Source: Longimicrobiales bacterium (GTDB taxonomy: Bacteria; Gemmatimonadota; Gemmatimonadetes; Longimicrobiales; Gaopeijiaceae). Taken from it: a DNA stretch of 64,000 bases. The notes under the pieces were generated by a model. That model did no database searches and was not told the origin of the DNA. It was given only the letters and a program-made list of their open reading frames with translations. The stretch spans positions 1,312,001 through 1,376,000 of the forward strand of contig CBDAON010000004.1 in the NCBI GenBank assembly GCA_965198065.1. The letters are read 5' to 3'. The position numbers and the translations under genes are program-made. Positions 20,112 to 44,100 of the stretch are shown here, piece by piece; the stretch's first letter is position 1, and the number at the start of each line of letters is the position of its first letter.

Positions 20112-20160
20112 CGCGCTGGCACCCTTCCCGGAGGGATACATGGCCGGGAGCGACCCCGCC

Positions 20161-20397: not shown

Positions 20398-20403
20398 GGC
20401 CGG

Positions 20404-21338
20404 TCATCGGAAGTGCGCCCCGGAGAGGCGCACCGTTTGCCAGGTGCGGCCGGTGTGGATCGGCCCTCGGCCGCGCTGCCGACGTGCCTGCTTCGTCAGC
20501 GTGACGCTGCGTTTCAGGGCGGCTTGCAGGCCTCCGAACTCGTCGAGGATCTGGATCGCACCTTGAAGGATGGCGCGCTCGATGCGGTCGATCTCTTCAC
20601 GGATCCCGGCGTCCGGTTCGGCCGGGCCGGAGGCTTCTGCCCAGCCGCCGAGTATCGCCCGGGCCCGAGCAAACTCCTCGAGGGTGCGGACGACGGCCAC
20701 GACCTCGACGGATCGGCCGCGCTCGCTGAGCGCTTTCCAAAGGCCGCGGTGCGCTTCGCCCCAGGAGCGGAGCGCGGTCGTGGTATCGTGTCCGGGATCG
20801 ACGTAGACGAACACGGCGCGCTCGGCTTCGAGCGCGACCGGCAGCTTGACTGGGAAGTAACGCCGCGTGTTACCGGCCGCTCCGCGGTAGAGCCGCGAGG
20901 GCAGGATCCGGCGTTCGATGCCGAGCGCCTCGAATGCGCCGACCTTCTCGGACTCGGTCGGCAGCCACGGCAAGTCGGGATGCTCGAGCACGTAGTCGAG
21001 CGAGAGCAGGCGACGCATGAGCACCGCCTCGGAAGCGGCCCGGCGGTGGCGGATGTCCTCGGCGCCGAGCGCTCGGTAGATGCGCCGGCTGAAAATCCTG
21101 CACACGCGGCCGATGCCATTGATGCCGGGCACGGTCTCTTCGGTGGCCGCGCCTTGCGCGATCAGGGCGTGGACGCCGCGCCGCACCTGTTCGGGATGCG
21201 CATCGAGGAACCGGGACCACTGGGCGCGGATGAACACGCCGCTGTGGAGACAAGCCAGCGCGATCCATTCGGGGCCTGGCGTCCCGTCCAACCGAACGGC
21301 TCAAGGGCCGCTTCCCGTCCCCGCAGATGGGCGATCAC
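20404..21338 (-). CDS. wHTH-containing hypothetical ICE protein, frameshifted near 21272
   Basis: GTG start overlaps the virB8 stop; VIAHLRGREAALEPFGWTGRQA joins EWIALACLHSGVF across a homopolymer run. Confidence 0.65.
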
Positions 21339-21804
21339 CTGGGCTGCTCCGTGACCAGGGCACGGTCGGCCTGGAGGTAGGTGATGAGGATGCCCATCGG
21401 GTTGTAGACGACGAACTCGGAGGGAATGACGGTGAGGAACGTGAACCGGAGCGTGATCGACCACCGCTCCCTCAGGGTCTCCTGCCCCTGCCGGAGGTGG
21501 ACTAGGTCGAAGTCGGCGGTCGCGCCGTGGGGTGCCTCCGGTGCGGGGTGGATGCGGAGCACGGCCTGCTCGACCTGGAGCTCGGTGTCGGCGGTGCCGG
21601 CCGCCATGGCGGCGACCTCGGCGCCGTCCCTCGTGAACGCGGCGTTCGCCAGCTCGGTCGAGAGGAAGCGTAGGCTCCGGGTCCAGTGCTCCTCGACCGT
21701 CGCCTGGCGCCTGGAGTAGAAGTCGGCGATGAACCGGTTCAGGAAATACTTGGTCGTGGGATCGAGCGGATCCGCCTGCGCCGTTGCGGCCTCGTAGGCC
21801 ACGG
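21335..21804 (-). CDS. virB8: VirB8/TrbF, 3' part (gene split by element 1)
   Basis: VAYEAATAQ...KYFLNRFIADFYS...YNPMGILITY (VirB8 NPxG motif). Confidence 0.85.
21786..21804. repeat. att core, left end of element 1
   Basis: GCGGCCTCGTAGGCCACGG, identical at 26777-26795. Confidence 0.92.
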
Positions 21805-21913
21805 ACATCCAGAATCTACCGGTGTCCAGTGCCATCCAGATAGATTGCTAAATTACTGTAGTTAAAGGGCTTTATCTACCTTATCCGGCATCTTGCGCGG
21901 CTCGCTACATCCC

Positions 21914-21942
21914 TTGATATCCATCTCCATCCCCTATATTAT
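21914..21942 (+). promoter_or_regulatory. Sigma70-type promoter of integrase 1 (probably leaderless)
   Basis: TTGATA-17 bp-TATTAT, ATG 6 nt downstream; same arrangement upstream of integrase 3. Confidence 0.7.
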
Positions 21943-21948
21943 GAGGGT

Positions 21949-23181
21949 ATGAATGCCGTAGAGAACACCGCCGATCCGCCCCGGAAGACCAAGCCCAAGG
22001 GCCGTCACCCCGACAAAGCCCTGTCCGCCGCCTTCGTGCGCACGGCCCCGCCGGGCAGATATTGCGACGGCAATGGGCTCTACCTCTTCGTTCAGCCGAG
22101 CGGAGCCCGGAGCTGGATTCAACGGCTGGTCATCCGCGGCCGTCGCCGTGACTGCGGACTCGGCAGCGTCGCGCTGGTCTCGCTCGCCGAGGCTCGAGAG
22201 AAGGCGCGGGCCAACCGCAAGCTGGCCCGCGAGGGCGGCGACCCGCTGGCGGAGAAGCGCCGCGCCCAAGGCGTGCCCAGCTTCGCCGAAGCCGCTGCGC
22301 GCGTGGTGCAGCAGAAGCAGGCCGGTTGGCGCAATCCGAAGCATTGCCGCGACTGGATGTCGAGCCTGAGGCGATTCGCCTTCGCGCGCATCGGCGAGAT
22401 ACCGGTGTCGCAGGTGACGAGCGCCGACGTGCTGGAGATCCTTGCTCCGATCTGGCACACGAAGGCGACCACCGCCCGGAAGTTGCGCCAGCGCATCCGC
22501 ACGGTGTTGGAGTGGGCCGTGGCGATGGAGTTCAGGACCGACAACCCGTGCGACCGCCTCGGGCCGGTGCTCGGAGCGCAAGACGCCGTGGTGCAACACA
22601 TGCGGGCCTTGCCGCATCGCGAGGTGGCATCGGCCCTCGAGACGGTGCGGGCATCGGAGAGGATGCCCGTCGTCAAGCTGGTGTTCGAGTTCCTGGTGCT
22701 GACGGCGGCGAGGTGGGGCGAGGTACGGGGGGCCGAATGGGCCGAGATCGATCGGAGGGAGGGTGTGTGGACGGTTCCAGCCACACGGATGAAGGCGAAG
22801 CGCGAGCACCGGGTGCCGCTGTGCCGCCGCGCCATGGAGATCCTCGAGGAGGCGCGGACGCTCGACGACGGCAGTCCGCTGGTGTTCACCGACGGGGCAG
22901 GCAGGCAGCTCAACGGCAAGCGGCTGCGGCGGCTGCTCCGAAAGCACGGGATCTCGGCCGTGCCGCACGGCTTCCGGTCCAGCTTCAGGGACTGGGCGGC
23001 CGAGGAAACGGACCATCCGCGCGAGGTGATCGAGGCGGCGCTGGCGCACGTGGTCCAGAACAAGGTCGAGGCCGCGTATCGGCGCACGGACCTGTTCGAG
23101 CGCCGCCGCCTGCTGATGAACGATTGGGCCGGGTATCTGGCCCGCGAGCGTCGAGACCCGGAGGCCGGTCCCAGCCGCTGA
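21949..23181 (+). CDS. P4-like tyrosine integrase (Arm DNA-binding domain)
   Basis: DGNGLYL, GLGS..VSLAEAR, LTAARWGE, HRVPL, PHGFRSSFRDW, ALAH, AAYRR. Confidence 0.95.
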   Translation: MNAVENTADPPRKTKPKGRHPDKALSAAFVRTAPPGRYCDGNGLYLFVQPSGARSWIQRLVIRGRRRDCGLGSVALVSLAEAREKARANRKLAREGGDPLAEKRRAQGVPSFAEAAARVVQQKQAGWRNPKHCRDWMSSLRRFAFARIGEIPVSQVTSADVLEILAPIWHTKATTARKLRQRIRTVLEWAVAMEFRTDNPCDRLGPVLGAQDAVVQHMRALPHREVASALETVRASERMPVVKLVFEFLVLTAARWGEVRGAEWAEIDRREGVWTVPATRMKAKREHRVPLCRRAMEILEEARTLDDGSPLVFTDGAGRQLNGKRLRRLLRKHGISAVPHGFRSSFRDWAAEETDHPREVIEAALAHVVQNKVEAAYRRTDLFERRRLLMNDWAGYLARERRDPEAGPSR

Positions 23182-23249
23182 GGCGCGAGCCGTTGAGGCC
23201 CGATCCGAGGCCGATCCACGGCTGGCTCATGACCCCTTAAGGGTCAAGA

Positions 23250-23308
23250 GCCAGCCTACCCTTTGTACCCACAAAGGGGCTGGCGAGGGGCTCCGCCCCT
23301 TCGATCCC
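23250..23308 (+). other. oriT-like hairpin A
   Basis: GCCAGC-cta-CCCTTTGT-accc-ACAAAGGG-GCTGGC then GGGGCTCCGCCCCTTCGATCCC; homologous block in element 2. Confidence 0.5.
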
Positions 23309-23551
23309 GAAGGATGCCCGCGCTCTGCTGCGGTGTGCCGTGCTCGCCCAGCGTGCGAGCCGTGTCCGGTCGCGCCCGATGGAGCCTGGCCAGGCGGCTC
23401 CGCAGCGACCGCCTCAGCGTCACCGGCGCAGCTCGCGCCCACGCTCGGCGGACACCGCTCGAGGGGTTGGCCGAAGGGCCGGAGTCCCGGGGAAGGCGCC
23501 TGGCCCCGGGAGGGAAGGAGTGGCCCCCCGGTTCCGATGCCACGGGCTAAT

Positions 23552-24172
23552 TCAACTGAACGTCGCGGCCCCCGAGAACGACTCGTTGATCTGAGCGCCG
23601 CACGCCTGCCCGGCGACTGTGATGCTGAACCCGAGCAACGCGTCCGGATCATCCACCGACTCCAAATCCACATCCATCCGGCATGACCCACTCCGACCGT
23701 CGCCCGTGGCCCACTGAACCGTCCCGGCCACGGTGCCGCTGATCTCGAACATGAACTCTGTCGAGATTGACAGCTCGATGCTCATCTCCACCTCGGGCGC
23801 GCCGTCCACGGTAAAGGTGATCCCGGTCCCCGTGTGCCTCTCCATGCAATCCGCGTGAACAAGGGTCGCCGACACGCCCACGCCGGCGCCGTCGTCGCCC
23901 GGTCCTAGGGAAGGCGTGACCTGTGCGTCCACTGCCACCGTTCCACCTATCGTGCATTGGCCCGTGAACTGTAGGCTGGCGCCGCCAGGGGTCACGATCT
24001 CGTTGATTTCGTCGCCGCTCAGCAGCTGGAGGCCGGGGTTCATCGTTACCTCGAGGAGCGCGAGAGCCTCCGCCGGGGTCAGCGAGTCTTCGGGCTCCGT
24101 CGAGCTGCCACCGCCGCAAGAAGCCACGGCTAGTCCGACACTCAGAATCACCCCTGCTCGAATTCGGCGCAT
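23552..24172 (-). CDS. Lipoprotein cargo, unknown function
   Basis: Signal peptide with VASC lipobox; RBS GAGGA. Confidence 0.75.
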   Translation of the reverse strand: MRRIRAGVILSVGLAVASCGGGSSTEPEDSLTPAEALALLEVTMNPGLQLLSGDEINEIVTPGGASLQFTGQCTIGGTVAVDAQVTPSLGPGDDGAGVGVSATLVHADCMERHTGTGITFTVDGAPEVEMSIELSISTEFMFEISGTVAGTVQWATGDGRSGSCRMDVDLESVDDPDALLGFSITVAGQACGAQINESFSGAATFS

Positions 24173-24189
24173 AAGTCACGTCCTCTGTT

Positions 24190-24400
24190 GTGGCAATTTC
24201 TGATTCGGGAGCGCCAACTCGCGAATCGATCCCGGCCGGTCGCCTGAGCGGGCGTGAGCGGGATCACCCGTTCCGCAACCACCGGCGAGCCCTTCTCTTC
24301 GGCACGCCCCGACCGTGTCCGGATGTGCCGTGATAACACTCCCGGAGCCTAGGAGGTCCTGTGTGGGCGCCGCCGGGTTGAGCCGGAGTGAGATCCCTGA
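24190..24400 (-). pseudogene. Decayed mobC-like (RHH) gene
   Basis: Fragments ISLRLN, LSRHIR and IRELA in shifting frames, downstream of an oriT-like hairpin. Confidence 0.35.
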
Positions 24401-24522
24401 CTCGGGCTCGGGTCGGTCACTTTGTGACGAGCGAGTACCGGCGTTCAGTAAGGCCAACAGCACGGCAGGCGGGCGAGCGAGCCGGGCGGCCGCTCGCTGC
24501 CCCGGCAGCGGCCCGGTAAGTT

Positions 24523-24615
24523 GGGGGTTCAAGGGGGGCGCAGCGTCCCCTTGGCCAGACCGCAATGTTTGACATTGCGTGGGCTGGCTTAAGCACCTTA
24601 GTGTCCGTCTAAGGT
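24523..24615 (-). other. oriT-like hairpin B
   Basis: GCCAG..CGCAATGT-ttg-ACATTGCG..CTGGC flanked by CTTAAG/CTTAG/CTAAG repeats and a GGGG...CCCC stem. Confidence 0.45.
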
Positions 24616-24912
24616 GGCGCGACGGCGGTCGGAAACGCACCCGCCGGGGGGGTGTTGGCCCCCGGCTTGCGCGTCCCCTCTGAGTTGCTGGTGAAGCTCT
24701 CGTGGGCTCACCTCCGGAGCCGGTCACGGTGCGGGGGGGTGAAGCGATCCGGCGCGCAAGCCCGCCAGGTTCGCACGTGCGGGGATCGGATCGGCGGGGC
24801 ACACGGGGCCTCCGGGGAGCTTCACCGCCGGGGGGATCGCATCGCAAGCGCTGGCGCTAGGCAGGGGCGGTCTGAAGGAAGTAGTGGTCTGATCTTCCTG
24901 TAACGAAGACGC

Positions 24913-25299
24913 TTAGGCTGGGTCTCCTTTCTTGATACGAATTCCTGCGCAGAAATAAGCGATGATCGCCCACGCCGGTATGACCAAGTACGGAAACGGG
25001 TCGGTTGCGATCTCGAAGGCAATGTCATTTCGCAGAATAATCAACAGCACTATAGACACCAGAGCCAAGGCTTCTACGGACCTCCGAAGCATCGTCTCCT
25101 TTCTCAAGCCTAGGAGTCTCCTCTTTCGAGACCGGTAGGCGAGAGCGCCAAGAATCATAATTGGTCCGGCAATGAATCCTGCCGTGTCGTCCCCGGCCGC
25201 CAACCGGGCGGGAGCTCCGAGGAAGTAGATGGCGCCAAACACAATGGCCAGAGTGGATCCTAGGAACCGCATGTCTGGCACGAACCGGTTCGCTTTCAC
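24913..25299 (-). CDS. Small integral membrane protein cargo
   Basis: About four hydrophobic segments; GAGGAGG RBS before GTG. Confidence 0.65.
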   Translation of the reverse strand: MKANRFVPDMRFLGSTLAIVFGAIYFLGAPARLAAGDDTAGFIAGPIMILGALAYRSRKRRLLGLRKETMLRRSVEALALVSIVLLIILRNDIAFEIATDPFPYLVIPAWAIIAYFCAGIRIKKGDPA

Positions 25300-25720
25300 G
25301 ACAAACGCCTCCTCACCCGTAGGATGTAGCGAGAGGCCAATCTTAGGGGATCGCATCCGGGAGCGAGCCCGCCGGGGCGGATCGGATCGCAAGCCTGCCA
25401 GGCGCGCACATGGCTGCCTCCGGACCTACTGGGAAAGGTGCACCGGGTGGTGCCGTTAGTCCGACGGTCCAAGAGAAACCGGTGTGTAGAATGCGACCAT
25501 GCGGCACGTGTGGCATACGAGAGGAATTACGGGGAACAACTCATCTTCCTCGGACTGCCCCTGGAGGAACCATAGCCTACTGCCGGGTTCCAGAGTTTCT
25601 TGGTTCCGGCAATGTAGGCAGATGATGCCATGCTGGCGCAGGTGAGCTGATTACTCTCCTCAGCTCTTCACTGGTCAGCTTATCGGACCGGGTGTACTCG
25701 ATTCTGTCCGGATCCATGCG

Positions 25721-26311
25721 TCAGCCGCAGGCTTCCTCATTCACGCGGAGGTAGTCGAGGATGAACCCGTCCAGGTACTCGGACACCGTTTGCATGATGA
25801 AGCTCGCGCTCCCGCCGTGTGTGCCGATGGTGTCCCTTTCCCATGTGGTGGCCACCCCCGATTCTCCGCTTCTGGGGTCTTGGACGGACTTAAAGAGCTC
25901 TAGGCTGATATCGAACGCCGGGCTGAACGTCCTGATATTCAGCTCCAGCATCTGGCCGCCGCCCGAATCGTACAGCCTAGCGGCCCGCAACCGGCTCTCC
26001 ACCATCGTCCAAACGCGCTCCTTGGTGAGCCCCATTTCCTCCGCCTCGTCGCCTGAGACTAGACCGACGGCATACACCGGCGCGCACTCGGTGAATAGCC
26101 CGAAGCGGTCAACGTACGTCCCGTCCAAAATCTCCGCGAACACGTTGCACGGCGGCAGTGCCTGGTCCGGGTCGGCGGACACCGGCGGAGCGCCTGACGG
26201 GTCCTGCTCCGGGGCGGGCTCCGCCCTGTCGAAGTCGTCAACCTGGCACGCGAGCGGCACGGCGAGCGCGAGGCCCGCCAGAGCGAGCTGGCAGACACGG
26301 TGGGCGCTCAC
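25721..26311 (-). CDS. Lipoprotein cargo (paralogue of 41118-41960)
   Basis: PLAC lipobox; FTECAPV, ESRLRAA, FILDYLRVNE motifs shared with the paralogue. Confidence 0.75.
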   Translation of the reverse strand: MSAHRVCQLALAGLALAVPLACQVDDFDRAEPAPEQDPSGAPPVSADPDQALPPCNVFAEILDGTYVDRFGLFTECAPVYAVGLVSGDEAEEMGLTKERVWTMVESRLRAARLYDSGGGQMLELNIRTFSPAFDISLELFKSVQDPRSGESGVATTWERDTIGTHGGSASFIMQTVSEYLDGFILDYLRVNEEACG

Positions 26312-26562
26312 GGGGCCGGGCCGGGCTCGGGGGGGCGCAGCCCGGAGCCGCGCCAGCCGTCGATCAGCCCCTCGATCCGCGCCACGCGTTCCCGCAGGTC
26401 CGCGACGTCGCGGCGGATGGCGACCGCGAGCACGATGCCCACGCCGTCCGCTCGATGGCGGCGAGGGAGCCCGCGCGGAGTCGGATCAAGACTTGTTCGG
26501 GGTACAGCGTTCGCCGCCGGGACATTCGGCGGGGCTCTTGTCCGCCTCCAAGCGTGCGCCAA
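26308..26562 (-). CDS. Short coiled-coil peptide, possibly a remnant
   Basis: IRRDVADLRERVARIEGLIDGW heptad; stop overlaps the next start; N-terminus unconvincing. Confidence 0.35.
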   Translation of the reverse strand: MAHAWRRTRAPPNVPAANAVPRTSLDPTPRGLPRRHRADGVGIVLAVAIRRDVADLRERVARIEGLIDGWRGSGLRPPEPGPAP

Positions 26563-26760
26563 GGGACGGTTGGTCCGGTCATTGCTCGTCCTCCGTTGCG
26601 TCGGCGCGGACCTTCAATCCCCACTGTCTAACCGACGGGTTCTGCAAGGTTCCCTTCCGCGAACGTCCACTGGGGTCGAACGGATTCCCGTACGGAAAGA
26701 GGGATCTAATGAGGGGATCGGAGAGAGTTGGTCAGCAGTAAGTTATTATATATCAGTATC

Positions 26761-26994
26761 TTATAATCTTTCTGTCGCGGCCTCGTAGGCCACGGCCTCG
26801 GCGCGGCCGACCTCGTCGACCCGCACCACGATGGGCCTGGGCGGCTCGACGGTCGCGATGCGAAGGAGCAGGACGGCGAGCGCGAGGCATCCCCCTGCTA
26901 GGATGATTGCAAGAGTCCGGAGCTTTCGGTTCGCCTCGACGGTCTCGCCCCAGATCTCCGCGTACTCGCGGCCGGCATCGTGTTCTCGGTTCAT
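26761..26994 (-). CDS. virB8: VirB8/TrbF, 5' part (truncated by element 1)
   Basis: MNREHDAGREYAEIWG...TM...PIVVRVDEVGRAEAVAYEAA, then a stop inside the element. Confidence 0.85.
   Translation of the reverse strand: MNREHDAGREYAEIWGETVEANRKLRTLAIILAGGCLALAVLLLRIATVEPPRPIVVRVDEVGRAEAVAYEAATERL
26777..26795. repeat. att core, right end of element 1
   Basis: GCGGCCTCGTAGGCCACGG. Confidence 0.92.
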
Positions 26995-27005
26995 GGATGT
27001 CTCCT

Positions 27006-28016
27006 TCAGCCTCCGGGGACTGGGGGGCGGGGCGGGTTCGCGGCAGCCGTGAGGCGCCCGCCGCCGCGCACCACGAGCGCCATCATGCCCGACCCGACGG
27101 ACCCGGATCCGGAGACGAGCATCGCGGCGAGCTCGCCCACCTTCATGCCGGCCATCAGGCCGGAGACGACGAGCGGGAGGAGAACGACGACCCACAGCCC
27201 CAGCTCGGCGGGGTCGGAGGAGCCGGTGCCCATCAGGGCACCGGTATAGGTGGTGACGTAGCCCATGCCCACGCCCATGAACACACGGAGGATGGCTCCC
27301 GCCACGACGCCGTAGAGCGTGTAGACCATGAGCGTGCGGAACCATCCCCAGAACAGGAACGCGAGCGGCTCGAACAGCAGCCAGGGGATGAACACGGGGC
27401 CCAAGAGGATCACGATCGCGAGCGCCACCTGCGCCCAGATCACCTGCGCGTAGGTCAGGCAGAAGAGCGCGACTAGGCCGAGCACGAGCGGCACGCCCAT
27501 CATCAGCGCGACGAGGGCGGAGAAGAACACGCTCACGCCCTCGGTCACGAGGGTCATCAGGCTCCCGCCCGACCATGCCGCGCCGAGCCGTGCGGCGAAC
27601 GCCTGCACCAGCGCGGTCATCTCCGTGTAGCCGACCGACACGACGTCGGAGATGAACAGGTTCTGGAGCCAAATCCCTCCGGCCGCCACCGTGGCCGGGA
27701 ACGTGAACCCCACGCCCGGGATCGGGACGCTGTAGTAGTGGAGTAGCGTCCGGGGGATCGCGATCCCGAGGACGACCCGCACGAGCGCCCAAGGCTCGAG
27801 CGTGCCGCTGTAGGCGATCTTGAGGCCGGTCCAGGCGACGACGATCGCCGCGAGACCGCCCCAGAGTTGGTGGCCGAGCGTCAGCACGTCGGGCGCGGCG
27901 CCGCCGATCACCGTATCGAGCACGACGTCCAGGAACCCCTTGAAGTCCTGGAGCTGATCCGCGGGGATCTGGGCCGGGACGTTCGGATCGATCGACTGAG
28001 GGGGAGGAAGTTGCAT
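27006..28016 (-). CDS. virB6: VirB6/TrbL-type inner membrane T4SS protein
   Basis: Polytopic, LLGPVFIPWLLFEPLAFLFWGW; position in the operon. Confidence 0.85.
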   Translation of the reverse strand: MQLPPPQSIDPNVPAQIPADQLQDFKGFLDVVLDTVIGGAAPDVLTLGHQLWGGLAAIVVAWTGLKIAYSGTLEPWALVRVVLGIAIPRTLLHYYSVPIPGVGFTFPATVAAGGIWLQNLFISDVVSVGYTEMTALVQAFAARLGAAWSGGSLMTLVTEGVSVFFSALVALMMGVPLVLGLVALFCLTYAQVIWAQVALAIVILLGPVFIPWLLFEPLAFLFWGWFRTLMVYTLYGVVAGAILRVFMGVGMGYVTTYTGALMGTGSSDPAELGLWVVVLLPLVVSGLMAGMKVGELAAMLVSGSGSVGSGMMALVVRGGGRLTAAANPPRPPVPGG

Positions 28017-28035
28017 GACGGTCGCTCCCCGGGGC

Positions 28036-28947
28036 CTAGGCTTGGCCGCCCATGTAGAACGACGGGACCTTGAAGAGGAGCCCCTCCCGGAGCCGGTCGC
28101 GATTCTGGAGCGCGGCCGCCCGCATCTGCTCGTACATCGCGTTCGTACGGAGGCGTGCGTCCCTCCACTCGGCGAGCCGCTCGAGCCGGTCGATCTCGGC
28201 CTGCTGCATCTGGTTCGCCTGCTCGACGGCCTGATAGGCGAGCACCTGCGCCACGGCGGCGTTGATCCGGCCCTGCGTCAGCGCGGCAGCCACTTGCGCC
28301 TGCTGGAGCGCCGTGTTGGACAGATTGCCGTTCGCGGTCAGGTCGTCGAACGAGCCCTGTGCGCTCTCGACGGTCGAGGCGAGCGAGGCCGCGGCGTCCA
28401 TCATCGCGTAGTCGAGCACGCGCTGGCGGTCGGCGGCCTCACGGGCCTGGCGGTAGTCCTCAACCGCGCGCGACGACGCCTCGGCCGGGCGGTTGCGGAA
28501 CAGCTCGAGGATGTCCGCCTCGCTCACCTGGTCGGCCACCCCTTGGGCGCTCCGCCAGACGTCGGTGAACGAGTCGCCGCTCCCCATGTCACGCACCGCG
28601 TCGACCAGCTCGCCGGCTGCGCCGGTGAAGTCGGAACCCCAGTCGAGGCCGTCGCCGACGAGGCCGATGGACCCGGCCGCCAGCTCCGCGAACGGCTCGA
28701 TCAGCCCATCCACCTCGCCCCGCGCAACCTCCTTCATGTAGTCGAGCTGCTCCTCGAGCTCGGTGAGCTGGCGGGTCATCGTCCGCATCTGGCGGATCTG
28801 GTTCGCGATCTGGGTCGCCTGGTTCACGATCATCTGGGCACGCTGAATCGCGCCGCTGATGGCGCCCAAGAAGGCTTCGGCCGGCGCCGCGCTGGTCAGG
28901 ATCAGGATCGGGACCAGGAGGACGGCGGTAAGGGTTCGGTGACGCAT
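28036..28947 (-). CDS. TrbJ/VirB5-like T4SS protein
   Basis: Signal peptide, NQATQIANQIRQ helical Q-rich segment; AGGAG RBS (alternative start 28968). Confidence 0.7.
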   Translation of the reverse strand: MRHRTLTAVLLVPILILTSAAPAEAFLGAISGAIQRAQMIVNQATQIANQIRQMRTMTRQLTELEEQLDYMKEVARGEVDGLIEPFAELAAGSIGLVGDGLDWGSDFTGAAGELVDAVRDMGSGDSFTDVWRSAQGVADQVSEADILELFRNRPAEASSRAVEDYRQAREAADRQRVLDYAMMDAAASLASTVESAQGSFDDLTANGNLSNTALQQAQVAAALTQGRINAAVAQVLAYQAVEQANQMQQAEIDRLERLAEWRDARLRTNAMYEQMRAAALQNRDRLREGLLFKVPSFYMGGQA

Positions 28948-28964
28948 TAGAGGCTCCTTTCGTC

Positions 28965-30251: not shown

Positions 30252-31110
30252 CGGAGCGCTTCCGCGGCGTGAACCGCCAGGCAGCCCGCTTGTCGCCGAT
30301 CTGCAGCCACCCGTCGGCCAGTACGTGGCGGGCGACGTACAGCCCGTCATCCGTCAGATCGTAGGCCACGAGCGCCGGTTCCCCGTCCCGGAGCTCATAG
30401 AGCGCGGGCGACTCCTGTGCGTGGGACCTCAGATAGGTGAACTGCCCGTCGTGCCACATCGCCTCGACCAGGAACGGTCGGTCGGCCGCGTCCCCGTCGA
30501 GCCGGTACTCGAACGCGAGACGCTCCGGATAGGCGGCACGGAACTCCTCGATCGCCGACTCAGCCTGAGTCCGGGCCTCCAGGATGCTGGCCTCGGCCGC
30601 CTCCCGGGCACTCCGCGCGGCCTCGGCCGCCTCGGCGGCCATCTGTTGGTAGGCCGCGACCTCGCTCCGCGCGACGAACGCGGGACGGCCGCTGCCTCCA
30701 GAGAGCCGCGCCGCCTCTGCTCCGGACTCTACGCGAACGACCAGATGAGGCGGCCCGTCGCTGTGCTCGGCCACCAGGAACGAGTAGATCCGCCCCGACT
30801 CGCAGACGAGCGCGATGTTCGTCGCCGCGTCCGGCCGCAGGGGTTTCAGGAACGCGACGTTCGCGGCGCCCGCCAGATGCCAGTACTCCGAGTCGCCGAC
30901 CACGAAATCCAGGATGTTCTCATCGGCGGGGAGCACGATCACCGTCGTGTGACGGACCTGCGTCCGCAGCCGGTGGATGCGGTCCTCGCCCTCCTCCGGG
31001 ACCGGCACCCGGAGGAACGCTTGGTCGTCCTCCTGCTGGGCGGTAGCCCCGGCGGGGAGGGCAGCCAAGAGAAGGGCGGTTAGAACGAGGGGTGCCATTG
31101 GTGGTCGCAT
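29662..31110 (-). CDS. virB9: VirB9/TrbG; the recognisable domain ends near 30260 and the ORF then runs on into virB10
   Basis: Signal peptide, TTVIVLP, GDSEYW, FLKP, ATNI, WHDGQFTYL, PALY. Confidence 0.8.
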   Translation of the reverse strand: MRPPMAPLVLTALLLAALPAGATAQQEDDQAFLRVPVPEEGEDRIHRLRTQVRHTTVIVLPADENILDFVVGDSEYWHLAGAANVAFLKPLRPDAATNIALVCESGRIYSFLVAEHSDGPPHLVVRVESGAEAARLSGGSGRPAFVARSEVAAYQQMAAEAAEAARSAREAAEASILEARTQAESAIEEFRAAYPERLAFEYRLDGDAADRPFLVEAMWHDGQFTYLRSHAQESPALYELRDGEPALVAYDLTDDGLYVARHVLADGWLQIGDKRAAWRFTPRKRSDEPLEAVGPAPGRRAAGRHRDEGGRGVDRRARRWTAFLLGDDGSPGSRHSRSPARGAGCRRRDGEVAPGAHSARGRAADSGGRRTGARRARAPAGRCRRGDGPDPGRVPGAEHRCPRHRSGGVGASGGASAGGAGAKNTLAPHPSRGPVVPRSKRDSGVVRGWRPAHRRCGRRGCGVPREHGPSGARLLRAVRRDA

Positions 31111-31116
31111 GGCGTG

Positions 31117-32959
31117 TCAGCTCCTTGCGTTGGGGGTGGGGGTGGGGGTGGGATCGTCTCGGCTCGCGAGCACCTCGAGCGCCCGGCTGAGTCCGTGACG
31201 CTCGACGGCCCGGGCCCGCTCCTCGGCGTCCAATGCGGACGAGGTGTAGAGCCAGTAGCTCTCCGGATCGACCTCGAGCCGGAGCACCGCCGCCCCGTCC
31301 GGGCGGCGCAGGTAGAGCTCGCGTTTGGGGATCAGGCCCCGGACCTGGGCCAGCTCCGACTCGTTCAGCCGGAACAGCGCTCCGACCTCGTCGGGGAGCT
31401 CCGGGTTCGCGAGGAACAGCTTGGTCGGGATCGACTCGAGGAGCGCCGCCGCGCCCGGCGTGGCCGTGACGTCCACCGCGGACTGGGTGGCGAGGATCAG
31501 CGCGGCGTTCTTCTTCCGCCACGTCTTCGCCGCCTCGGCCAGGTAGCTAAGCACCGCCGGGTCCTGCAGGTAGCGCCAGGCTTCGTCCACCACCATCAGC
31601 TTCAGCCGCGTCGCCTCGGACGGATCCTCCACCTCGAGCCGCATCCGCTCGAGCAGATAGGAGAGTGCCGCGTCGCAGAGATCCGGATGCTCGACCGCAC
31701 CCGCCAGATCGATCACCTGCCAGTCGGCGAACTCGAGGTCCGGCGCCCCGCCCGCCGGGTTGTCGAAGTAGGCGCCCCACGCGCCGCCTTGGGTCCAGCG
31801 GCTCCATGCCGGCCACGTCGCGGACGGAAGCGAGCTTGCCAAGACGCTCAGCGTGCGCCGCTCCGGCTCGAACGCGTAGAGGTCCTCGATCCGCGCCCGG
31901 ATCTCGCTCGTATCCGCCCCGCTCGCTTCCCAACCGCCGAGCTTCAGGAGCCGGAGCACCCAGCCGGTCAGGAACTGGAACGTCCGCGTGCCCGCCGGCA
32001 GGGCGAACGGCTGAAGCCGGAGCGTCGGCTCCGCCTCCCCGGGCGAGAGCTCCAGGTAGCGGCCCCCGAGGAACCGGGTCAGCCAGCGGTAGGAGCCGCC
32101 CAGGTCCAGGATCAGGACGCGCGGGTCGTACCTGAGAGCTTCGACCAGCAGGAAGTTGAGCGTGAAGCTCTTCCCCGAGCCGGTCGCGCCGAGCATCAGC
32201 GTGTGGCCTACGTCGCCGGCAAACAGGTCGTAGTGGTACGCCGTACGCCACGGGGTCTCCAAGACCGCGAGCGACTCGCGACCGAGATGCTTGCTCTTTG
32301 CCGTGCCCCGGGGCGGCCCGAAGAGCGGCGCCAGGCTCGCCGCCACACCGGCCGACACGAACACCTTCCGCACCTGCCGCCCACGCGGCTGGGCCGGCAG
32401 CCGCGCGAACCAGGCCGGCAGCTGGCCGTAGCCCTCACGGATCACCTTCGCGGCGTGCGCGGCGAACAGCCGACGCAGGTCGCCGTCCACGCGTTCGATG
32501 CTTCCCAGCTCGCCGTGGAGGGCCACGGTCAGCGTGGCCTCGCCGTAGCTCACCCCGTCCGCTTCCAGCTCGACCAGCGCCTCGCCCAGCCGGTCGGACT
32601 CGGTCGCCGCGGCCGAGTCGACCATGGCGGCCGCCGTGCCCTCGGTCTCCTGCACATGCGCCATCATCGAGTAGCGCCTGGCGAAGTAGTGGCGCTGCGC
32701 GCCACGGATCCGGCGCCTCGCCGCCTCCATCGCCCACGGCCGCCACTCGAGCGAGACCGTCATCGCCGCGTCCAGGCAGTAGAGCTCCTGGAGCAGGTTG
32801 GCCCGGGCCTGCCCAGGCGGGGACAGAAGCGAGTACAGGATCACCGGCTGGCCGTCGAGGCGCAGGTGCCCTCGCTCCGCCTCGAGTTCCGAGAGGGCGA
32901 GCCGCCAGTTCATACCGCTCCCCGTCGCGCCGTCCCACACCGTGCCCGGACGGTTGATC
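31117..32959 (-). CDS. virB4: VirB4/TrbE ATPase, 3' part (gene split by element 2)
   Basis: GHTLMLGATGSGKS, DLGGSY, VVDEAW, RKKN, ATQS. Confidence 0.9.
32949..32959. repeat. att core, left end of element 2
   Basis: GACGGTTGATC, identical at 37251-37261. Confidence 0.85.
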
Positions 32960-33311
32960 TACTGTCTATCCTGTTGCTATTTCGTCATAAGTATATGACT
33001 TATAGTTATTTATGGATGTAGTAGTTTTTGGTCCGACTCGTTTATATCGTATGTGATCCCGTATAATTGGCGTGCGATTACACGGGAACCTACGGTACGT
33101 TCGCGGACCCCGTGACGGGTTCGACCTTCGGCGTCGCGCGGGGCTGAGAAAGACCACGCAGATGACGATGCCCCCCTGAGCGGCGGCCAGATCCGCAATG
33201 GACCAGAGCCCGCCCGCCAGTAAGACCATGAGAATCGCGACGTCGATGGCAAAGAGGGGGCGATTGTATACCCCGTGCACGTCACCGGAAGGCCAGTTAG
33301 CATGAGGACCC

Positions 33312-33500
33312 ATGGAGCACCCCCCAGGAGACCGCCAAGCCGCCAGCTTCGGACGATTCAGAGCCAGCGTGGGCGATCTAGAGGTCCACGGACGGCCATA
33401 CCCGAGAATGCAAATGCTGACCGTTCAAGAGATCCTAGACGGGAGGCGGTTCGACACGCCTAGCGTCGTGGGCCGTGGATCGTCTCAGACCGTCTTCGGG
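33312..33500 (+). pseudogene. C-terminal fragment resembling DNA methyltransferase/restriction fusion proteins
   Basis: YPRMQMLTVQEILDGRRFDTP motif with no upstream catalytic domain. Confidence 0.4.
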
Positions 33501-33987
33501 ATCGCAGACGGAAAGGCACAGCAAGTGCTCAAGATTGATGGACTAAGGCGGACCGGTCTCGCTATTGGGTCACGCAACCGGGAGACACCCACCCAGCGAA
33601 AGGCAGCGTGGCCGAGCTGATGCGGGCGCTTGCGAAGGAACTCGAGGTCCCCATCTACGTTGACGACACCAGGGAGACCCTCGCGCTGAGGCTCGCCCGG
33701 GCGAACCCCGAGCGCTGGAAGGAATTTATCACGGAGGAGCACCTAACCGAGTCTGGAGCTGCGGACTCGACACCCAGGAGTGGACCCCATGCTAAGCCCT
33801 GACTCCGGGCTGCAAAGCCCATAACTTGTTATCGCGAAGTTCTTCGCTAAGCTCCTCAATGTTGATGATGCGACGAGACCCAGCTACTTTTACCACACGG
33901 GCAGCTGCGGACCGGTGAGCCACGTCGCAGACAGTAGTTCCCGCACCCAGGTCTAGCGTCCTCCAACCTACGGAAGAAGGCTACACG

Positions 33988-34644
33988 ATGCGTCTCGCAC
34001 CTCATCTCCTCCAGCAGGTTTCTCCACTTTTCGCACTTGCGCTTTCCGTCAGCCTACTCGTCCCGGGAAGTGTCCAAGGGCAGACGAGCCTGTCACTCCA
34101 GGCCGGCGCCAGCCTCGCGACCCTCGGAGGGAGCGACGTAGACAGCGCTGATTCTCGAACCGGCATCAAAGTTCGGGCATCGGCTATCCTGCCACTTACG
34201 ACCAGCCTTGGTTTGCAGCTTGGGGCTGCCTATGCAGCAAAGGGCGCGACCGAGCAGGAAGATGGTGTGGATTTGGCGTTTGATCTCGACTACCTGGAGA
34301 TACCCCTGCTTCTGAGGCTCAGCCCTGCCGTCGCGGGCACCCTATCGCCGCACTTCACCATCGGCCCGACACTCTCCTTTCGGGTGGCCTGCAACGTGAG
34401 CGGAAAGGCAGAGGGCTTTGAGATTTCAGTTGACTGCGATGATGCAGAATTTGCGGACTTGAGCTTGAAGACGATTGACTTTGGGGCAGTGGCCGGTGCC
34501 GGTCTAGACATCGCAACGCCGGGTTCCCTGTCCGTGTCGTTGGATGTCCTCTACAACTTTGGTCTGGCGTCCATCTCCGAGTCGGACGATGTGAAGAATC
34601 GCGCGTTCTCGATCCTAGCGGGCATCACGTTCCCCATAGGATAG
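33988..34644 (+). CDS. Outer-membrane beta-barrel (porin family) cargo
   Basis: Signal peptide, LDYLEIPLLL, DFGAVAGAG, terminal GITF strand. Confidence 0.85.
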   Translation: MRLAPHLLQQVSPLFALALSVSLLVPGSVQGQTSLSLQAGASLATLGGSDVDSADSRTGIKVRASAILPLTTSLGLQLGAAYAAKGATEQEDGVDLAFDLDYLEIPLLLRLSPAVAGTLSPHFTIGPTLSFRVACNVSGKAEGFEISVDCDDAEFADLSLKTIDFGAVAGAGLDIATPGSLSVSLDVLYNFGLASISESDDVKNRAFSILAGITFPIG

Positions 34645-35539
34645 CAACCGAGTTCGAAACACAACCACGCCGTGTCGAACGGGCGAGCTGACGGTCGAGC
34701 TTACGAATGAGGCGCGACTAGGGCCACGACGATTGAGATGAGCCACTTCCGTCCCGTTTTCATTGAGCACTCCCCATTTGGCATTTGGGGCCTTGACACC
34801 CGGGACGTGGTAGTGCCGGGCCGTTTGTCGCCATGACCCGTTCTCCCGTCCGCATAACCCCCTTAACTGCCTCTTATGACTGCATAACTTGCGAGCCACT
34901 GAGCGCGTGTCAATATCGGAAACGGCTACTTATGGTAGTCGGTAAGTAACCGTTAACACCATCAAATTGTTGGACTTCGGTGGCTCCCTAACTCCGCTCC
35001 CCACGAGCGCGGGCCACCGCTATCCGGCGGCACCAACACACACGGCAGGAGAATGCAGGGATGCGGTGGACCCCGGCGTTGACAACACGAGTGTGTGGAG
35101 TGTCTATGGTAGGTTTGCTCGATGGCTGGCCGAGGGCTGATCGCCCGTGGCACGGCCTGGCAAACCGCACGACTCGCCCAGGTGCGCTTCCGATGAGAAG
35201 CCGACCCCTCACGCCACCACTGGGATGTGCAAGACACATCAGGGGTTGATGCACATATGGCCCCAGTCGTGATGTGCAGAAGCAGGGCTCGCTATCCTAT
35301 TGGGGCTGCGGCAGTTGCGCGCGGCGGCGCCCGCCCGGAGACCGCGAACGGGACAGCGCGCGGGTTAAGGGGAGCGACCCCCGGATTCGATGCCTCGATC
35401 GGCATCGCGGAGGGTTGGCATGTGCACACCCATGCCACCCTCCGCCGGGGGTCGCTCCCCTCCAGCAATCCCTAGCGGGAAGGCCATCAAGCGCCGCTGC
35501 GAGCGCGGCGTATCAACGAATCCGGCCGCCGGTCGCGGC

Positions 35540-35730
35540 TTTTCACCAGCTAGGTGGCTCGGCAAGTCGTCCCAGTGAGGTCGGCGTCGGCGCTCGACCA
35601 AGCCCGAAACTGCCCCGAGGTGGTTGAGGTTGCCGCCGATGCGCGCGACCTGCCGGCCGCGCTCGCACGCAAAGCGGCCGCCGGGGCAGTCCAGGTCCGC
35701 GTGCGCGCCATGGCCTGCCGGAGCGCGGGC
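35540..35730 (-). pseudogene. Decayed mobC-like gene
   Basis: RQVARIGGNLNHL resembles the MobC LxxIGxNLNQ motif. Confidence 0.55.
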
Positions 35731-35736
35731 GTCCAG

Positions 35737-35840
35737 GGGATCGAAGGGGGCGGAGCCACCCTCGCCAGCCCCTGCCGGGGACCCGCGAAGCGTGGCCACA
35801 AAGGGTAGGCTGGCTTAGGCACCGCTTAGGCACCGTAAGG
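35737..35840 (-). other. oriT-like block of element 2
   Basis: Reverse strand AGCCAGCCTACCCTTTGT...AGGGGCTGGCGAGGG..GCTCCGCCCC.TTCGATCCC as at 23249-23308; tandem GCTTAGGCACC x2 at 35813-35834. Confidence 0.5.
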
Positions 35841-35911
35841 TGTTCTCAGCCAGCTCTGCGGACGCCTCCGAAACGCCTCTCCGGGCACCGCCCGGAGCAG
35901 CGGGCCAAGGT

Positions 35912-37147
35912 CTATCTCTCGCCCGCGAGATAGGCCGCCCAATCGTCCATCAGCCGGCGCCTGCGCTCGAAGAGGTCCGAACGCGCATAGGCCGCTTCCA
36001 CCTTGTTGCGAACCGCATGGGCCAACGCGGCCTCGGCGACCTCACGCGGTGCGTTGGAACACTCGCCGCACCAGTCCCTGAAGCTCGAACGAAAGCCGTG
36101 CGGCACAGCCGCGATACCCAGGTCTCGAAGTAGCGTGGAGAGTCTGCTGCCGGGAAATGCGCGGCCCTCCGACGACGGGAAAACCAGACCGCTGCTGCCG
36201 CCGAGCGTCCGCGCCTCCTCGAGGATCTCCATGGCGCGCCCGGACAGCGGCACCCTGTGCGGGCGATGGGCTTTCGTGCGTTCGGCGGGAACCGTCCACT
36301 CCCGAGCCTCCAGGTCGATTTCATCCCACTGTGCCAAGCGAACCTCTCCCGAGCGGGCCGCCGTCAACACCAGGAACTCGAAGGCGAGTTTCGTGGCCGG
36401 GTAAGCGTGCGACTTCCGCACCATCTCCATCGCGCCCGCGACCTTCGAGTGAGGCAACGCGCGCATGTGCCGGATTACGGCTTGCTGTCGGCCAAGCGCT
36501 TGACCGAGCACATCGCTGGCGGGGTTGTCCGGCCGAAGCCCCATCGCCACCGCCCACTTCATCACCGCCCCGATGCGCTGGCGCACCCGCCGGGCCGTCA
36601 CCTGCTTGTCGTGCCAGATCGGTGTCAGAACCGCCAGAACGTCGGCTGTCGTTATCTCGCCGACCGGTCGATTGCCCAGCTGTGGGAATGCATAGACGCG
36701 CAGGCTCGAGACCCAGTCCTGCGCATGCCTGGGGCTGCGCCAGCCCGGCCGAAGCTGTTCCAGAACACGGGCGGCCGCCTCGGCGAACGTGGGCATGTCC
36801 CGGACCTTGTATCGCTCGGTACGCGGATCGCCGCCCGAGCGCGCGATCTTGCGGTTCATGAATGCCTTCTCGCGCGCCTCGGCCAGCGATACCAGCTGGT
36901 AGCCCCCGAGCCCCAGCGTGCGGTTTCGACCCTGGATCCGCAGACGCTGCTCCCATCGGCGCGCGCCGGATCGGTCCACGCGCAGATAGAGGCCGTTCCC
37001 ATCGCAGTAGTATCCGGGCTTGGCGCTGCGCACGAAGGCCGCGCTGAGTGCGTTGTGCGGCCGCCTGCCTCGGTGTTTGGGCAAATCCAATTCGGGAGTC
37101 CCCGTATAAAGTATCGTATGTTGTATACGGGAACATAGTGGACACAC
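35912..37147 (-). CDS. P4-like tyrosine integrase of element 2 (true start may be TTG at 37090)
   Basis: DGNGLYL, LTAARSGE, HRVPL, PHGFRSSFRDW, ALAH, AAYAR. Confidence 0.95.
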   Translation of the reverse strand: MCPLCSRIQHTILYTGTPELDLPKHRGRRPHNALSAAFVRSAKPGYYCDGNGLYLRVDRSGARRWEQRLRIQGRNRTLGLGGYQLVSLAEAREKAFMNRKIARSGGDPRTERYKVRDMPTFAEAAARVLEQLRPGWRSPRHAQDWVSSLRVYAFPQLGNRPVGEITTADVLAVLTPIWHDKQVTARRVRQRIGAVMKWAVAMGLRPDNPASDVLGQALGRQQAVIRHMRALPHSKVAGAMEMVRKSHAYPATKLAFEFLVLTAARSGEVRLAQWDEIDLEAREWTVPAERTKAHRPHRVPLSGRAMEILEEARTLGGSSGLVFPSSEGRAFPGSRLSTLLRDLGIAAVPHGFRSSFRDWCGECSNAPREVAEAALAHAVRNKVEAAYARSDLFERRRRLMDDWAAYLAGER

Positions 37148-37194
37148 AGCGACACTGCAACCGGGAGTATCCTACATAACTCACTGTGGTAACT

Positions 37195-37869
37195 CTAGTT
37201 ATATGATATTACTAGACATGTATGGATCGTATTGGAATCTATGTGTAGCAGACGGTTGATCAGCTCGGAGAGGAGACGGGAAGCTTCGGCGGGCTCGAGC
37301 ATCTCGATCGGCGTGTGCTCCTCCACGAGCGCCCGGCCCGCGTCCACCGTCGAGCGAAAGCGGGCAGCGGCGGCCTCGATCTCGGACCGCAGGTAGGTGG
37401 GCGCGCCCCCTCGGCGGCGCTTCCACCACTGCGTGAGCCGGGAGGCGCTACCCGATGTGGGCCCGTCTGCCACCGTCCGGAGACGGGGATCGTGCGACCA
37501 GACCAGGTAGGCCCCGAGCTGCTGCACCCGCCCGGCCAGAAACGCACTCCGCTTACGCTGCGAGACCGCTACGATGCCGGAACCCTCGTCGTCCGCGGCC
37601 TCGGGCGAGGCCGGGCGCCGGAGTAGATAGAAGTAGAGGCGCGTGTCGGCGTCCAACCCCGAAAGCAGACGCTGCCAGCGGCCCAGCACGCGGTCGATCT
37701 GCTCGGGCGAACGCCCATCGACCACCGCAGGCTCCAGCCGTCCGGCCGCGATCAACTCGCCGGACCGGGTCAGGCACGTGCGGCCGTCCTCGAGCCAACC
37801 CCAGTAGGGCAGCTCCTCGGCCAGCGAGCCGGCCGCCTCGTGGTCTCTGAGCTCAGCGGCGATCCTCAC
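37195..37869 (-). CDS. virB4: VirB4/TrbE, 5' part (truncated by element 2)
   Basis: GTG overlaps the virB3 stop; SLAEELPYWG...LSELINR, then reads into AT-rich element DNA to a stop. Confidence 0.85.
   Translation of the reverse strand: MRIAAELRDHEAAGSLAEELPYWGWLEDGRTCLTRSGELIAAGRLEPAVVDGRSPEQIDRVLGRWQRLLSGLDADTRLYFYLLRRPASPEAADDEGSGIVAVSQRKRSAFLAGRVQQLGAYLVWSHDPRLRTVADGPTSGSASRLTQWWKRRRGGAPTYLRSEIEAAAARFRSTVDAGRALVEEHTPIEMLEPAEASRLLSELINRLLHIDSNTIHTCLVISYN
37251..37261. repeat. att core, right end of element 2
   Basis: GACGGTTGATC. Confidence 0.85.
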
Positions 37870-38168
37870 CGCCCGCTCCGGATCACGAGATGCCACGGCT
37901 CTTCGGCCCACTTGCCCGGGTCGAAACGCGACGGGTAGCGCGTCCCGGCGCGGAGCACGCCAAGCATGTCCGGGTCCTTGCGGCCGGCCAGCCATCCGGC
38001 CCCAAAGCCGACCGCGAACACCACGCCGCCCGTCACGAGCGAAGCCGTCGCGTTCCACATCGCGAGCCCGAGCGTGGCGACGAGGAGAAACCCCCTACGC
38101 TCCACGCCCAGGATCGTGAGCGGACGGTTCAGCGCCGCATAACCGGCCCAGCGCCTCAGACCCCTCAT
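37866..38168 (-). CDS. virB3: VirB3/TrbD
   Basis: ALNRPLTILGVER, two TM segments, KDP motif. Confidence 0.85.
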   Translation of the reverse strand: MRGLRRWAGYAALNRPLTILGVERRGFLLVATLGLAMWNATASLVTGGVVFAVGFGAGWLAGRKDPDMLGVLRAGTRYPSRFDPGKWAEEPWHLVIRSGR

Positions 38169-38461
38169 CAGAAGAGCCAGGCCAGGAAGTTCGCCGCGCC
38201 CATCGCCATCCCGAGACCGAAGATGATCCCGGCCAGCGTCCGCTTGCTCCCGCCCTCGCCGAACGCGAACATCAGCCCGCCCACCACGATCGCGATCAGA
38301 GATAGCCCGCGCGCGATCGGACCCGTGAACTGCGCCTGCAGCTCGTTCACCGCCTCCACCCACGGGCTCGTCCCCTGCGCCCACAGCACCCCGGGGGACA
38401 GCAACCACAGCGCTACCGTGGCCCAGGCCGCCGCTCGTACCGTCCTAATGAAAGGTTGCAT
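38168..38461 (-). CDS. virB2: VirB2/TrbC pilin
   Basis: Signal peptide, SPW..., FTGPIARGLSLIAIVVGGLMFAFGE. Confidence 0.88.
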   Translation of the reverse strand: MQPFIRTVRAAAWATVALWLLSPGVLWAQGTSPWVEAVNELQAQFTGPIARGLSLIAIVVGGLMFAFGEGGSKRTLAGIIFGLGMAMGAANFLAWLF

Positions 38462-38496
38462 CGTCTGCTCCTTGGTCTCTCGCTGGGATGCGCCGA

Positions 38497-38988
38497 TCAC
38501 TCGGCTTTGCCGCGGCTCAACGCGATCTGCTTGCGGATCCACTCGTCCACCTCCTCCTCGATCCAGCCGACAGCGCGCGCGCCTAGCTGGACGGGTCTGG
38601 GGAAGGACCCCTCGGCCAGCCGCACGTAGATCGTGCTCCGCCCGAGCCCCGTGCGAGCTTGCACGGCCGGGAGCCGCACGATGCGGATCGGCACCTCCAT
38701 TTCCTGCACCATGGTTCTCGTCATCTCTCTGCCTCTCCGTTCTCTCTGGGATGAATCCCGGAGCCGGTCGCTCCGGGAGGAAACAGGGTCCACACCGGCC
38801 TCGTCGAAGCCTTCCATGAACGCCAGGAGCTGATCGACCGTCGCGAGCGTCGGGGAGCGGCCATGGCGTAGCTCACGCACCAGGTTCGGATCGCCAACCG
38901 CCTGGCGGCCAAGCGTCGCCGGCCCCACTCCCGTGCGCTCGAGGAACGCCTCCACTCGCGCCATGAAAAGCCCCTTCAGCGTCTCCAT
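38497..38988 (-). CDS. AlpA-family regulator with an extra N-terminal HTH
   Basis: IVRLPAVQARTGLGRSTIY..FPRPVQLGARAVGW; N-terminal GPATLGRQAVGDPNLV HTH. Confidence 0.88.
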   Translation of the reverse strand: METLKGLFMARVEAFLERTGVGPATLGRQAVGDPNLVRELRHGRSPTLATVDQLLAFMEGFDEAGVDPVSSRSDRLRDSSQRERRGREMTRTMVQEMEVPIRIVRLPAVQARTGLGRSTIYVRLAEGSFPRPVQLGARAVGWIEEEVDEWIRKQIALSRGKAE

Positions 38989-43945: not shown

Positions 43946-44100
43946 TGAACGCCTCCGTGGGCCGAGTACTCGCCTGTCAGGCCGTCGAGCAGGCGAACCG
44001 GATTTGCCGTGGTGGTCAACAATCCTGTGTGCCCAATCACATTTCGAACCGGCTTATATGAAACCGCATCTTTCCAGAGAGATTTATTCTTGCTCTTCGC

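Follow-up and report, generated by a model that had tools for sequence, protein, structure and literature searches.

Elements with P4-type integrases inside virB8 and virB4 of an integrative and conjugative element from a Longimicrobiales bacterium: probable embedded hitchhikers with subclade-fixed sites

VirB4 and VirB8 are both essential for the function of type IV secretion systems (T4SS). How, then, is a conjugation operon to be understood in which the genes for both are split by small elements that each bring their own integrase? The question is raised by a stretch of 64,000 nucleotides (here the window) from a Longimicrobiales bacterium (NCBI GenBank assembly GCA_965198065.1, contig CBDAON010000004.1, positions 1,312,001 to 1,376,000 of the forward strand), in which a region of the integrative and conjugative element (ICE) type, lying on the minus strand and anchored at a tRNA-Ile, contains one such element, E1, in virB8 and another, E2, in virB4. 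An initial annotation of the window had taken the two insertions for a possible AND gate, a pilus being built only once both elements have left. The comparisons described here favour a different picture, in which E1 and E2 are probably relaxase-less derivatives of helper-embedded mobilisable elements, inserted at subclade-fixed sites in virB8 and virB4, and in which the double hit most likely reflects two independent parasites accumulated on one ICE copy rather than an evolved gate.

Two interrupted pore genes

E1 comprises 4,991 bp inside virB8, between a 5' part (26777-26994, minus strand) and a 3' part (21335-21804, minus strand) that both match Pfam VirB8, and is flanked by an exact 19-bp direct repeat (21786-21804 on the integrase side, 26777-26795 on the far side), the second-longest exact repeat of the 64-kb window. 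E2 comprises 4,302 bp inside virB4, between a 5' part (37251-37869, minus strand) and a 3' part holding the ATPase domain (31117-32959, minus strand), and is flanked by an exact 11-bp repeat (37251-37261 on the integrase side, 32949-32959 on the far side). A repeat of 11 bp could by itself be due to chance, which is countered by a different, 9.4-kb element in another genome, since that element sits at the same virB4 codon and is bounded by the same 11 bp. As the initial annotation had described, both halves of each gene are free of stops and rejoin in frame; removal of the element, leaving one copy of the repeat, yields open frames of 222 amino acids (VirB8) and 816 amino acids (VirB4), with junctions as in the uninterrupted ICE copy of the same genome. 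The remaining backbone genes of the ICE also align without stops.

The P4-type tyrosine integrases of E1 (21949-23181, plus strand, opposite to virB8) and E2 (35912-37147, minus strand, co-oriented with virB4) are both intact, as had likewise been noted, each with Arm-DNA-bind_3, Phage_int_M and Phage_integrase domains and the catalytic R, H-x-x-R, H and Y motifs. Both match NCBIfam PRK09692 with scores under its cut-off (142 and 157 bits, 434 being required), and the two proteins, 64% alike, fall into separate subclades. A promoter-like site (21914-21949) ends 7 bp ahead of the start of the E1 integrase and is conserved in relatives (one found against 1.4 expected by chance); it may give rise to a leaderless message.

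The view that these are integrase-only satellites has to be abandoned, for both elements carry a motif resembling an origin of transfer (oriT). E1 has two copies, the first consisting of AGCCAGC plus hairpins (23247-23330, plus strand) and resembling a motif that precedes mobC in relatives and in small plasmids, the second at 24505-24591 (minus strand); E2 has one (35730-35817, minus strand) together with a weak mobC remnant of 17 amino acids (35614-35664, minus strand; E 0.007). Neither contains a relaxase by profile search, and none of their 83 frames matches a conjugation family, leaving them with no T4SS genes of their own. Their cargo consists, in E1, of an open reading frame of no family (23552-24172) and two more without a family over the cut-off (24913-25392 and 25721-26311), all on the minus strand, and, in E2, of an outer-membrane beta-barrel protein (33988-34644, plus strand).

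E2, as distinct from E1, also contains a copy (35368-35461) of a nested palindrome, M1, which in the window ICE lies between orfX and virD4 (20143-20240) and is found beside many ICE copies, those of copies B and C being 84-87% like the one in E2. In the ICE the palindrome folds with a z of -7.9, the fold being kept while the sequence varies among ICE copies, and M1 is a candidate ICE oriT by its position and conservation. Rfam gave a tRNA as its sole match and none for M1. The copy in E2 may be a captured ICE oriT, a lead only, suggested by passages of a preprint (Ares-Arroyo et al. 2026, bioRxiv 10.64898/2026.01.13.699239) in which MOB_C systems have their oriT with the pore operon on one side and the relaxase on the other, and by the fact that the candidate relaxase of the ICE (14951-15838, minus strand), itself a lead only, is Replic_Relax/MOB_C-like; it has no Pfam match of note, and the atlas look-alike of its copy-B orthologue is PF13814 at 0.90.

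One site for each integrase subclade

On a FastTree phylogeny of 152 integrase rows the subclades keep their own sites, the attachment site lying about 125-300 bp upstream of each family integrase. Sites in ICE genes that are occupied in at least two genomes are virB4 codon ~205, virB11 codon ~241, ardC codon 251, virD4 codon 242, the start of virD4 and a site downstream of orfX, with single cases at virB8 codon ~70 (the window), virB4 codons 56 and 681, virB9 codon 151 and the start of the ICE integrase. Among the 32 ICE-site rows, the nearest integrase shares the site in 25 of the 25 rows whose site occurs more than once, compared with a maximum of 12 in 10,000 shuffles, a test in which kin are not independent and from which two Vicinamibacterales rows and rows without an ICE match were left out. 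Where both ends could be located, the halves of the target resume across repeats of 7 to 14 bp or ~15 bp. Integrases sharing a site are 85-97% alike and those with different sites up to 87%; the integrase runs in the direction of its target gene in E2 and in most ICE-site subclades, E1 being opposite. The closest relatives of the E2 integrase (94-96%) come from Longimicrobiales metagenome-assembled genomes, more distant ones from Vicinamibacterales.

This tropism is not exclusive, since 100 of the 152 rows have neither an ICE gene nor an integrase gene at the junction, and the 42 flanking frames scanned match Ig-like repeats, PQQ dehydrogenases, istB and other genes. One subclade inserts at the 3' end of sibling family-integrase genes and so forms tandems. 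The expectation that close homologues of the window integrases would be found only at their target gene does not hold for E2, whose subclade occupies virB4 in five of nine rows and look-alike cores elsewhere in the other four, off-target copies in general retaining such cores. Many of these targets are repeated genes, which suggests selection for targets that are abundant and dispensable. Ig-like repeat and PQQ dehydrogenase neighbours belong to other subclades (loci L171, L172, L178, L180, L196, L199, L200 and L204). In the window, a third family integrase (50765-52024), like one at G000:C4:380407, directly follows a stretch coding the C-terminal end of another family integrase. Two further lineages were seen at ICE genes: one, 43% alike, which in three genomes occupies another virB8 site, near codon 90 (L339, L343, L344), and one, ~50% alike, beside an orfX broken at codon ~160 (L391, L396). 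One genome (G006) with about ten virB4 matches has no match to the integrase family and serves as an uninvaded control.

The initial annotation had suggested a search of related genomes for the same integrase clades at the same codons, and such recurrence is seen for virB4 and has not been found for virB8. Seven of the 22 virB4 copies that are at least 91% like that of ICE copy B are split at the E2 site, in four genomes, and most related ICE copies are empty. A single clade of occupied virB4 5' halves is rejected (approximately unbiased test, p-AU 4e-42), at least four changes being needed on the 13 rows used, with one doubtful row left out. At the level of sequence, the comparison shows that the virB4 site has been entered repeatedly, and recombination among ICE copies could add to the non-monophyly of occupied alleles. 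In one relative (G061) a single difference in 600 bases and none in 1,383 separate an empty virB4 from the occupied halves, a near-identity that points to recent movement there. The virB8 gene, by contrast, is split at codon ~70 only in the window, whereas 43 genomes gave 88 near-full-length matches without interruption (counted by hand); no second insertion at this codon was found in 401 genomes of a phylum sample (four candidates scored per genome), 5 further genomes, 79 metagenome loci and the 43 genomes searched for VirB8. Two further studies include runs with short contigs 97-99% like the E1 integrase, none among those listed spanning the virB8 junction. Four contigs starting near virB8 codon 70 and two near virB4 codon 208 were considered and dismissed as insertions, the contigs merely ending there.

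The mobilisation equipment that E1 and E2 lack is present in the family. Pfam Relaxase and MobC matches occur in all five genomes tested, often adjoining family integrases, and four of the ten elements with both ends located, window elements included, contain mobC and a full relaxase. The oriT-like hairpin motif is found in nine of these ten by one pattern and as a variant in the tenth, and in 20 of 26 mobC regions its distance upstream of mobC is 94-150 bp, one further, distant match being uncounted. Two small mobilisable plasmids have the same motif ~100-140 bp upstream of mobC, and the family relaxase is 47-57% like relaxases of such plasmids over ~250 amino acids; it has no match among solved structures. 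We take the relaxase/mobC module to be ColE1-like, of the MOB_P5 type. The genome of the window holds two intact sibling relaxases, one of them inside the virD4 element of ICE copy C. As cargo, relatives bring restriction-modification, TIR, TonB-receptor and repeat proteins, among others, and complete ardC-targeting elements of 10-17 kb (L379, L380, L381) contain integrase, mobC and relaxase, with 14-bp repeats in the two checked.

The mechanism that we envisage is as follows. The circular form of an element would recombine with the site proper to its subclade in an ICE gene, and precise excision would restore the interrupted gene. The oriT-like motif of the circle would be nicked in trans by a sibling relaxase and the circle exported through the T4SS pore supplied by the window ICE or by any sister copy. 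Target choice would fall on genes that are dispensable, present in several copies and indicative of a helper.

The host ICE, its sister copies and excision

From its left anchor, the tRNA-Ile (12900-12973, plus strand, Rfam match), the window ICE consists of the following minus-strand genes: a tyrosine integrase not of P4 type (13031-14194; domain match, 79% like its orthologue in the intact copy), the candidate relaxase, ardC (15862-16890), virB11 (17092-18075), virD4 for the coupling protein (18072-20108), orfX, a conserved ICE gene of no known family (20404-21338), virB8, an unbroken run of virB6, a virB5-like gene, virB10 and virB9 (27006-31110), virB4, virB3 with virB2 for the pilin (37866-38461), and at the operon head an alpA-family gene (38497-38988), a candidate excision factor in trans. 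Both ardC and virB11 are targeted by other subclades in other genomes, and in ICE copy C of the same genome a relative interrupts virD4. Just past alpA lies a broken fragment of a family integrase (39394-39645); further on are short stretches in inverted orientation that correspond to the end of virB10 and a part of virB5 (43787-44003), a remnant of another ICE copy, and defence-like cargo of lower GC (44601-49370), with two TIR-domain genes and a Schlafen/AlbA_2 gene.

Matches to the integrase family number about 20 in the same genome, which also has several copies or fragments of the ICE, two of the copies bearing directly on the proposed gate. In copy B all backbone genes are open from the integrase through virB2, alpA being in two pieces, and VirB4 and VirB8 are 90-96% and 90-93% like those of the window ICE. 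In copy C virB8 is intact, while virB4 contains the same E2 and virD4 a relative of 14 kb. Independent insertion of E2 into the window copy (copy A) and copy C was considered and rejected; the flanks of the two are 98-100% alike over ~8 kb near virB4, compared with 74-96% elsewhere, and E2 in both therefore goes back to one event. The intact virB4 of copy B (G000:C4:467291 region, L129) has a one-base synonymous difference in the E2 core, and the site is empty. A virB4 copy in genome G421 with another core variant is also empty. Such variants are possibly escape alleles, the cases being too few to say more.

The initial annotation's selected AND gate, with a pilus made only after both elements excise, would fit with the essential role of both genes, with their in-frame rejoining and with the open state of the other backbone genes. 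As a strict two-key switch it is nevertheless very improbable, because the genome also holds an unbroken ICE copy; other copies carry other combinations, such as virB4 plus virD4 in copy C, the virB8 split was seen in the window copy only among the 43 genomes with VirB8 matches, and the two integrases belong to separate subclades. At the level of the cell the gate is not supported: copy B has every T4SS gene open and copy C an intact virB8, a pore being likely buildable without any excision. The gate holds for the window copy in cis only, copy B being likely able to supply both proteins; until excision the double insertion disables the pore genes of this one copy, those of the cell as a whole being left available.

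Several observations weigh against our interpretation of E1 and E2 as embedded mobilisable elements. Rearrangements or breaks affect many of the occupied ICE copies, and the E2 integrase of copy C is frameshifted by one extra base. The specificity of E1 for virB8 is a single case, as no relative of its integrase above 81% was found in the genomes and metagenome contigs searched, and the exact 19-bp site is empty at three other places in the genome. The motif is a putative oriT, by its position and likeness only. A recognisable excisionase is encoded in none of the 83 frames of E1 and E2, and AlpA in none of the ten elements with both ends located. No joint corresponding to a circle or an empty site was seen at the repeats among the 15 listed of 201 joints when public contigs of four runs were compared with 20300-39500, a comparison that is uninformative either way because contigs drop rare forms. 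The hitchhiking proposed for these satellites receives support from the motif in both elements and from mobC and relaxase in relatives. A joint going back from 26699 to 24547, present in two runs, was tried as a deletion variant and rejected, as it lies off the repeats and likely stems from another element sharing modules. Runs labelled as sponge metagenomes contributed small shares, and we claim no habitat.

In a possible refinement of the embedded-hitchhiker interpretation, not exclusive of it, E1 and E2 would depend on the AlpA of the ICE or on read-through of the operon and would exit when the operon switches on, the pore genes being restored in time for use. The absence of AlpA from the ten elements would then be matched by the alpA gene at the head of the ICE operon, the product of which is ~72% like the AlpAs of sibling elements, while co-orientation of E2 and most ICE-site subclades with their targets would be in keeping with read-through. 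Precedents exist in passages describing excision of helper-embedded phage-inducible chromosomal islands (HE-PICIs) after helper induction (PMC10111431) and in a proposal for streptococcal elements (PMC5357655). The E1 integrase, antisense to the operon and with a promoter-like site of its own, speaks against read-through as a general rule, and eight further AlpA matches are present in the genome. We regard helper-timed excision as a tentative proposal that is possible without being probable, and we hold with similar reserve its extension to the whole family, according to which a tyrosine-integrase radiation at no fewer than nine ICE-backbone sites would have ceded control of excision to the helper AlpA, the gene being repaired and the satellite becoming ready for transfer as the transfer operon starts. 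If true, such an AlpA-controlled radiation of satellites would be the conjugative counterpart of helper-embedded phage satellites.

It could alternatively be argued that the insertions are single past events, now immobile, in an ICE that is a stranded remnant in a genome rich in insertion sequences (IS), so that the open halves attest to recent insertion only. The far attachment site of the window ICE was not found on its contig, which has no fitting copy of the tRNA-Ile 3' end, one 45-bp copy being present on another contig; E1 and E2 lack relaxase and AlpA, and the genome has a dense load of IS and ICE fragments. Both window integrases are nevertheless intact, the family has moved recently in a relative (G061), intact sibling relaxases exist in the same genome, and decay of the window copy would leave the family-level pattern as it is. 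The selection data do not mark the split halves as decaying, relaxed selection on them not being seen: the pairwise ratio of nonsynonymous to synonymous divergence (dN/dS) in virB4 is 0.13 (5', 13 pairs) and 0.07 (3', 15 pairs) for occupied copies, no higher than the 0.19 (5', 28 pairs) and 0.07 (3', 36 pairs) for empty ones, and in the window virB8 it is 0.12 and 0.18, compared with 0.15 and 0.19. The comparison excluded pairs with fewer than three synonymous differences, virB4 3' rows of less than 88% identity and any virB8 row broken at a different site. These comparisons fail to show an excess of amino-acid change, and with it decay; nor do they prove ongoing selection, because most of the divergence is older than the insertion, and pairwise dN/dS cannot tell recent insertion from ongoing selection. 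On balance we consider decay of this copy a serious rival, though rather unlikely, and the embedded-hitchhiker interpretation probably the better account of the locus.

Precedents for satellites in the genes of their helpers

Taken over all subclades, the elements likely represent a family-level radiation of hitchhikers onto one ICE backbone, wider than the initial annotation had supposed, and the concept has two published precedents. The first confirms the earlier remark that mobilisable elements in ICE genes are known from Firmicutes: Coluzzi et al. 2017 (PMC5357655), in the passages available, report serine-integrase integrative and mobilisable elements (IMEs) in traG/VirD4, maff2 and snf2 of Tn5252-superfamily streptococcal ICEs, one ICE with two IMEs still transferring and excision on induction being proposed. 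The second, in passages of Tommasini et al. 2023 (PMC10111431), is the HE-PICI integrase clade, which occupies 14 sites in late genes of prophages and whose elements excise once induction has taken place. A passage of a 2024 review (PMC11389934) mentions both cases, and one of another paper (PMC12084326) gives several IMEs per ICE in Faecalibacterium. In the open literature searched we found no paper on P4-type integrases at fixed virB4, virB8, virB11 or virD4 sites; subscription papers or supplements (TIGER island tables) may list such cases.

Already described for phages and for streptococcal elements with serine integrases, the embedding of satellites in genes of their helper is extended by the present family to P4-type integrases and a conjugation system of the Gram-negative kind. 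The family constitutes a natural panel of closely related integrases with mapped, different targets, on which the question of how a tyrosine integrase changes its site becomes testable, as does the tie between excision of an embedded element and helper induction proposed in 2017. In addition, split virB4 genes that are tallied as decayed ICEs may be reversibly interrupted.

To judge from the passages cited, the streptococcal IMEs resemble E1 and E2 in that mobilisable elements disrupt helper ICE genes site-specifically and that one ICE can hold two of them. They differ in having serine integrases and Firmicute hosts, whereas here the integrases are P4-type tyrosine recombinases in a host of Gemmatimonadota type, and the sites are more numerous, including those in the core pore genes virB4, virB8 and virB11. 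The HE-PICIs, as far as the quoted parts of that study describe them, are analogous in that the subclades of one integrase clade each keep one helper-gene site. In both cases a replacement sequence is absent, off-target events occur, a single helper can contain two satellites, and truncated helpers are seen. The HE-PICIs use a prophage helper and virion transfer, whereas the window elements are embedded in the T4SS genes of an ICE helper; HE-PICIs, all of them co-oriented, bring alpA and primase genes, whereas neither gene is found in E1 and E2 and both orientations occur; and the present family has an oriT-like site with or without mobC/relaxase and includes other subclades that enter non-helper genes.

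A third comparison is with the iMOB and iOriT elements of Ares-Arroyo et al. (2026), defined in passages of that preprint as an integrase plus an oriT with or without a relaxase. Like these, E1 and E2 have an integrase, direct repeats at both ends and no T4SS genes, and they lack a relaxase of their own; that study concerns nosocomial species, and its quoted passages contain no description of insertions within conjugation genes of a helper. Small mobilisable plasmids, finally, have the same mobC-relaxase module, which is found here on an integrating element, E1 and E2 having kept only the putative cis-acting motif.

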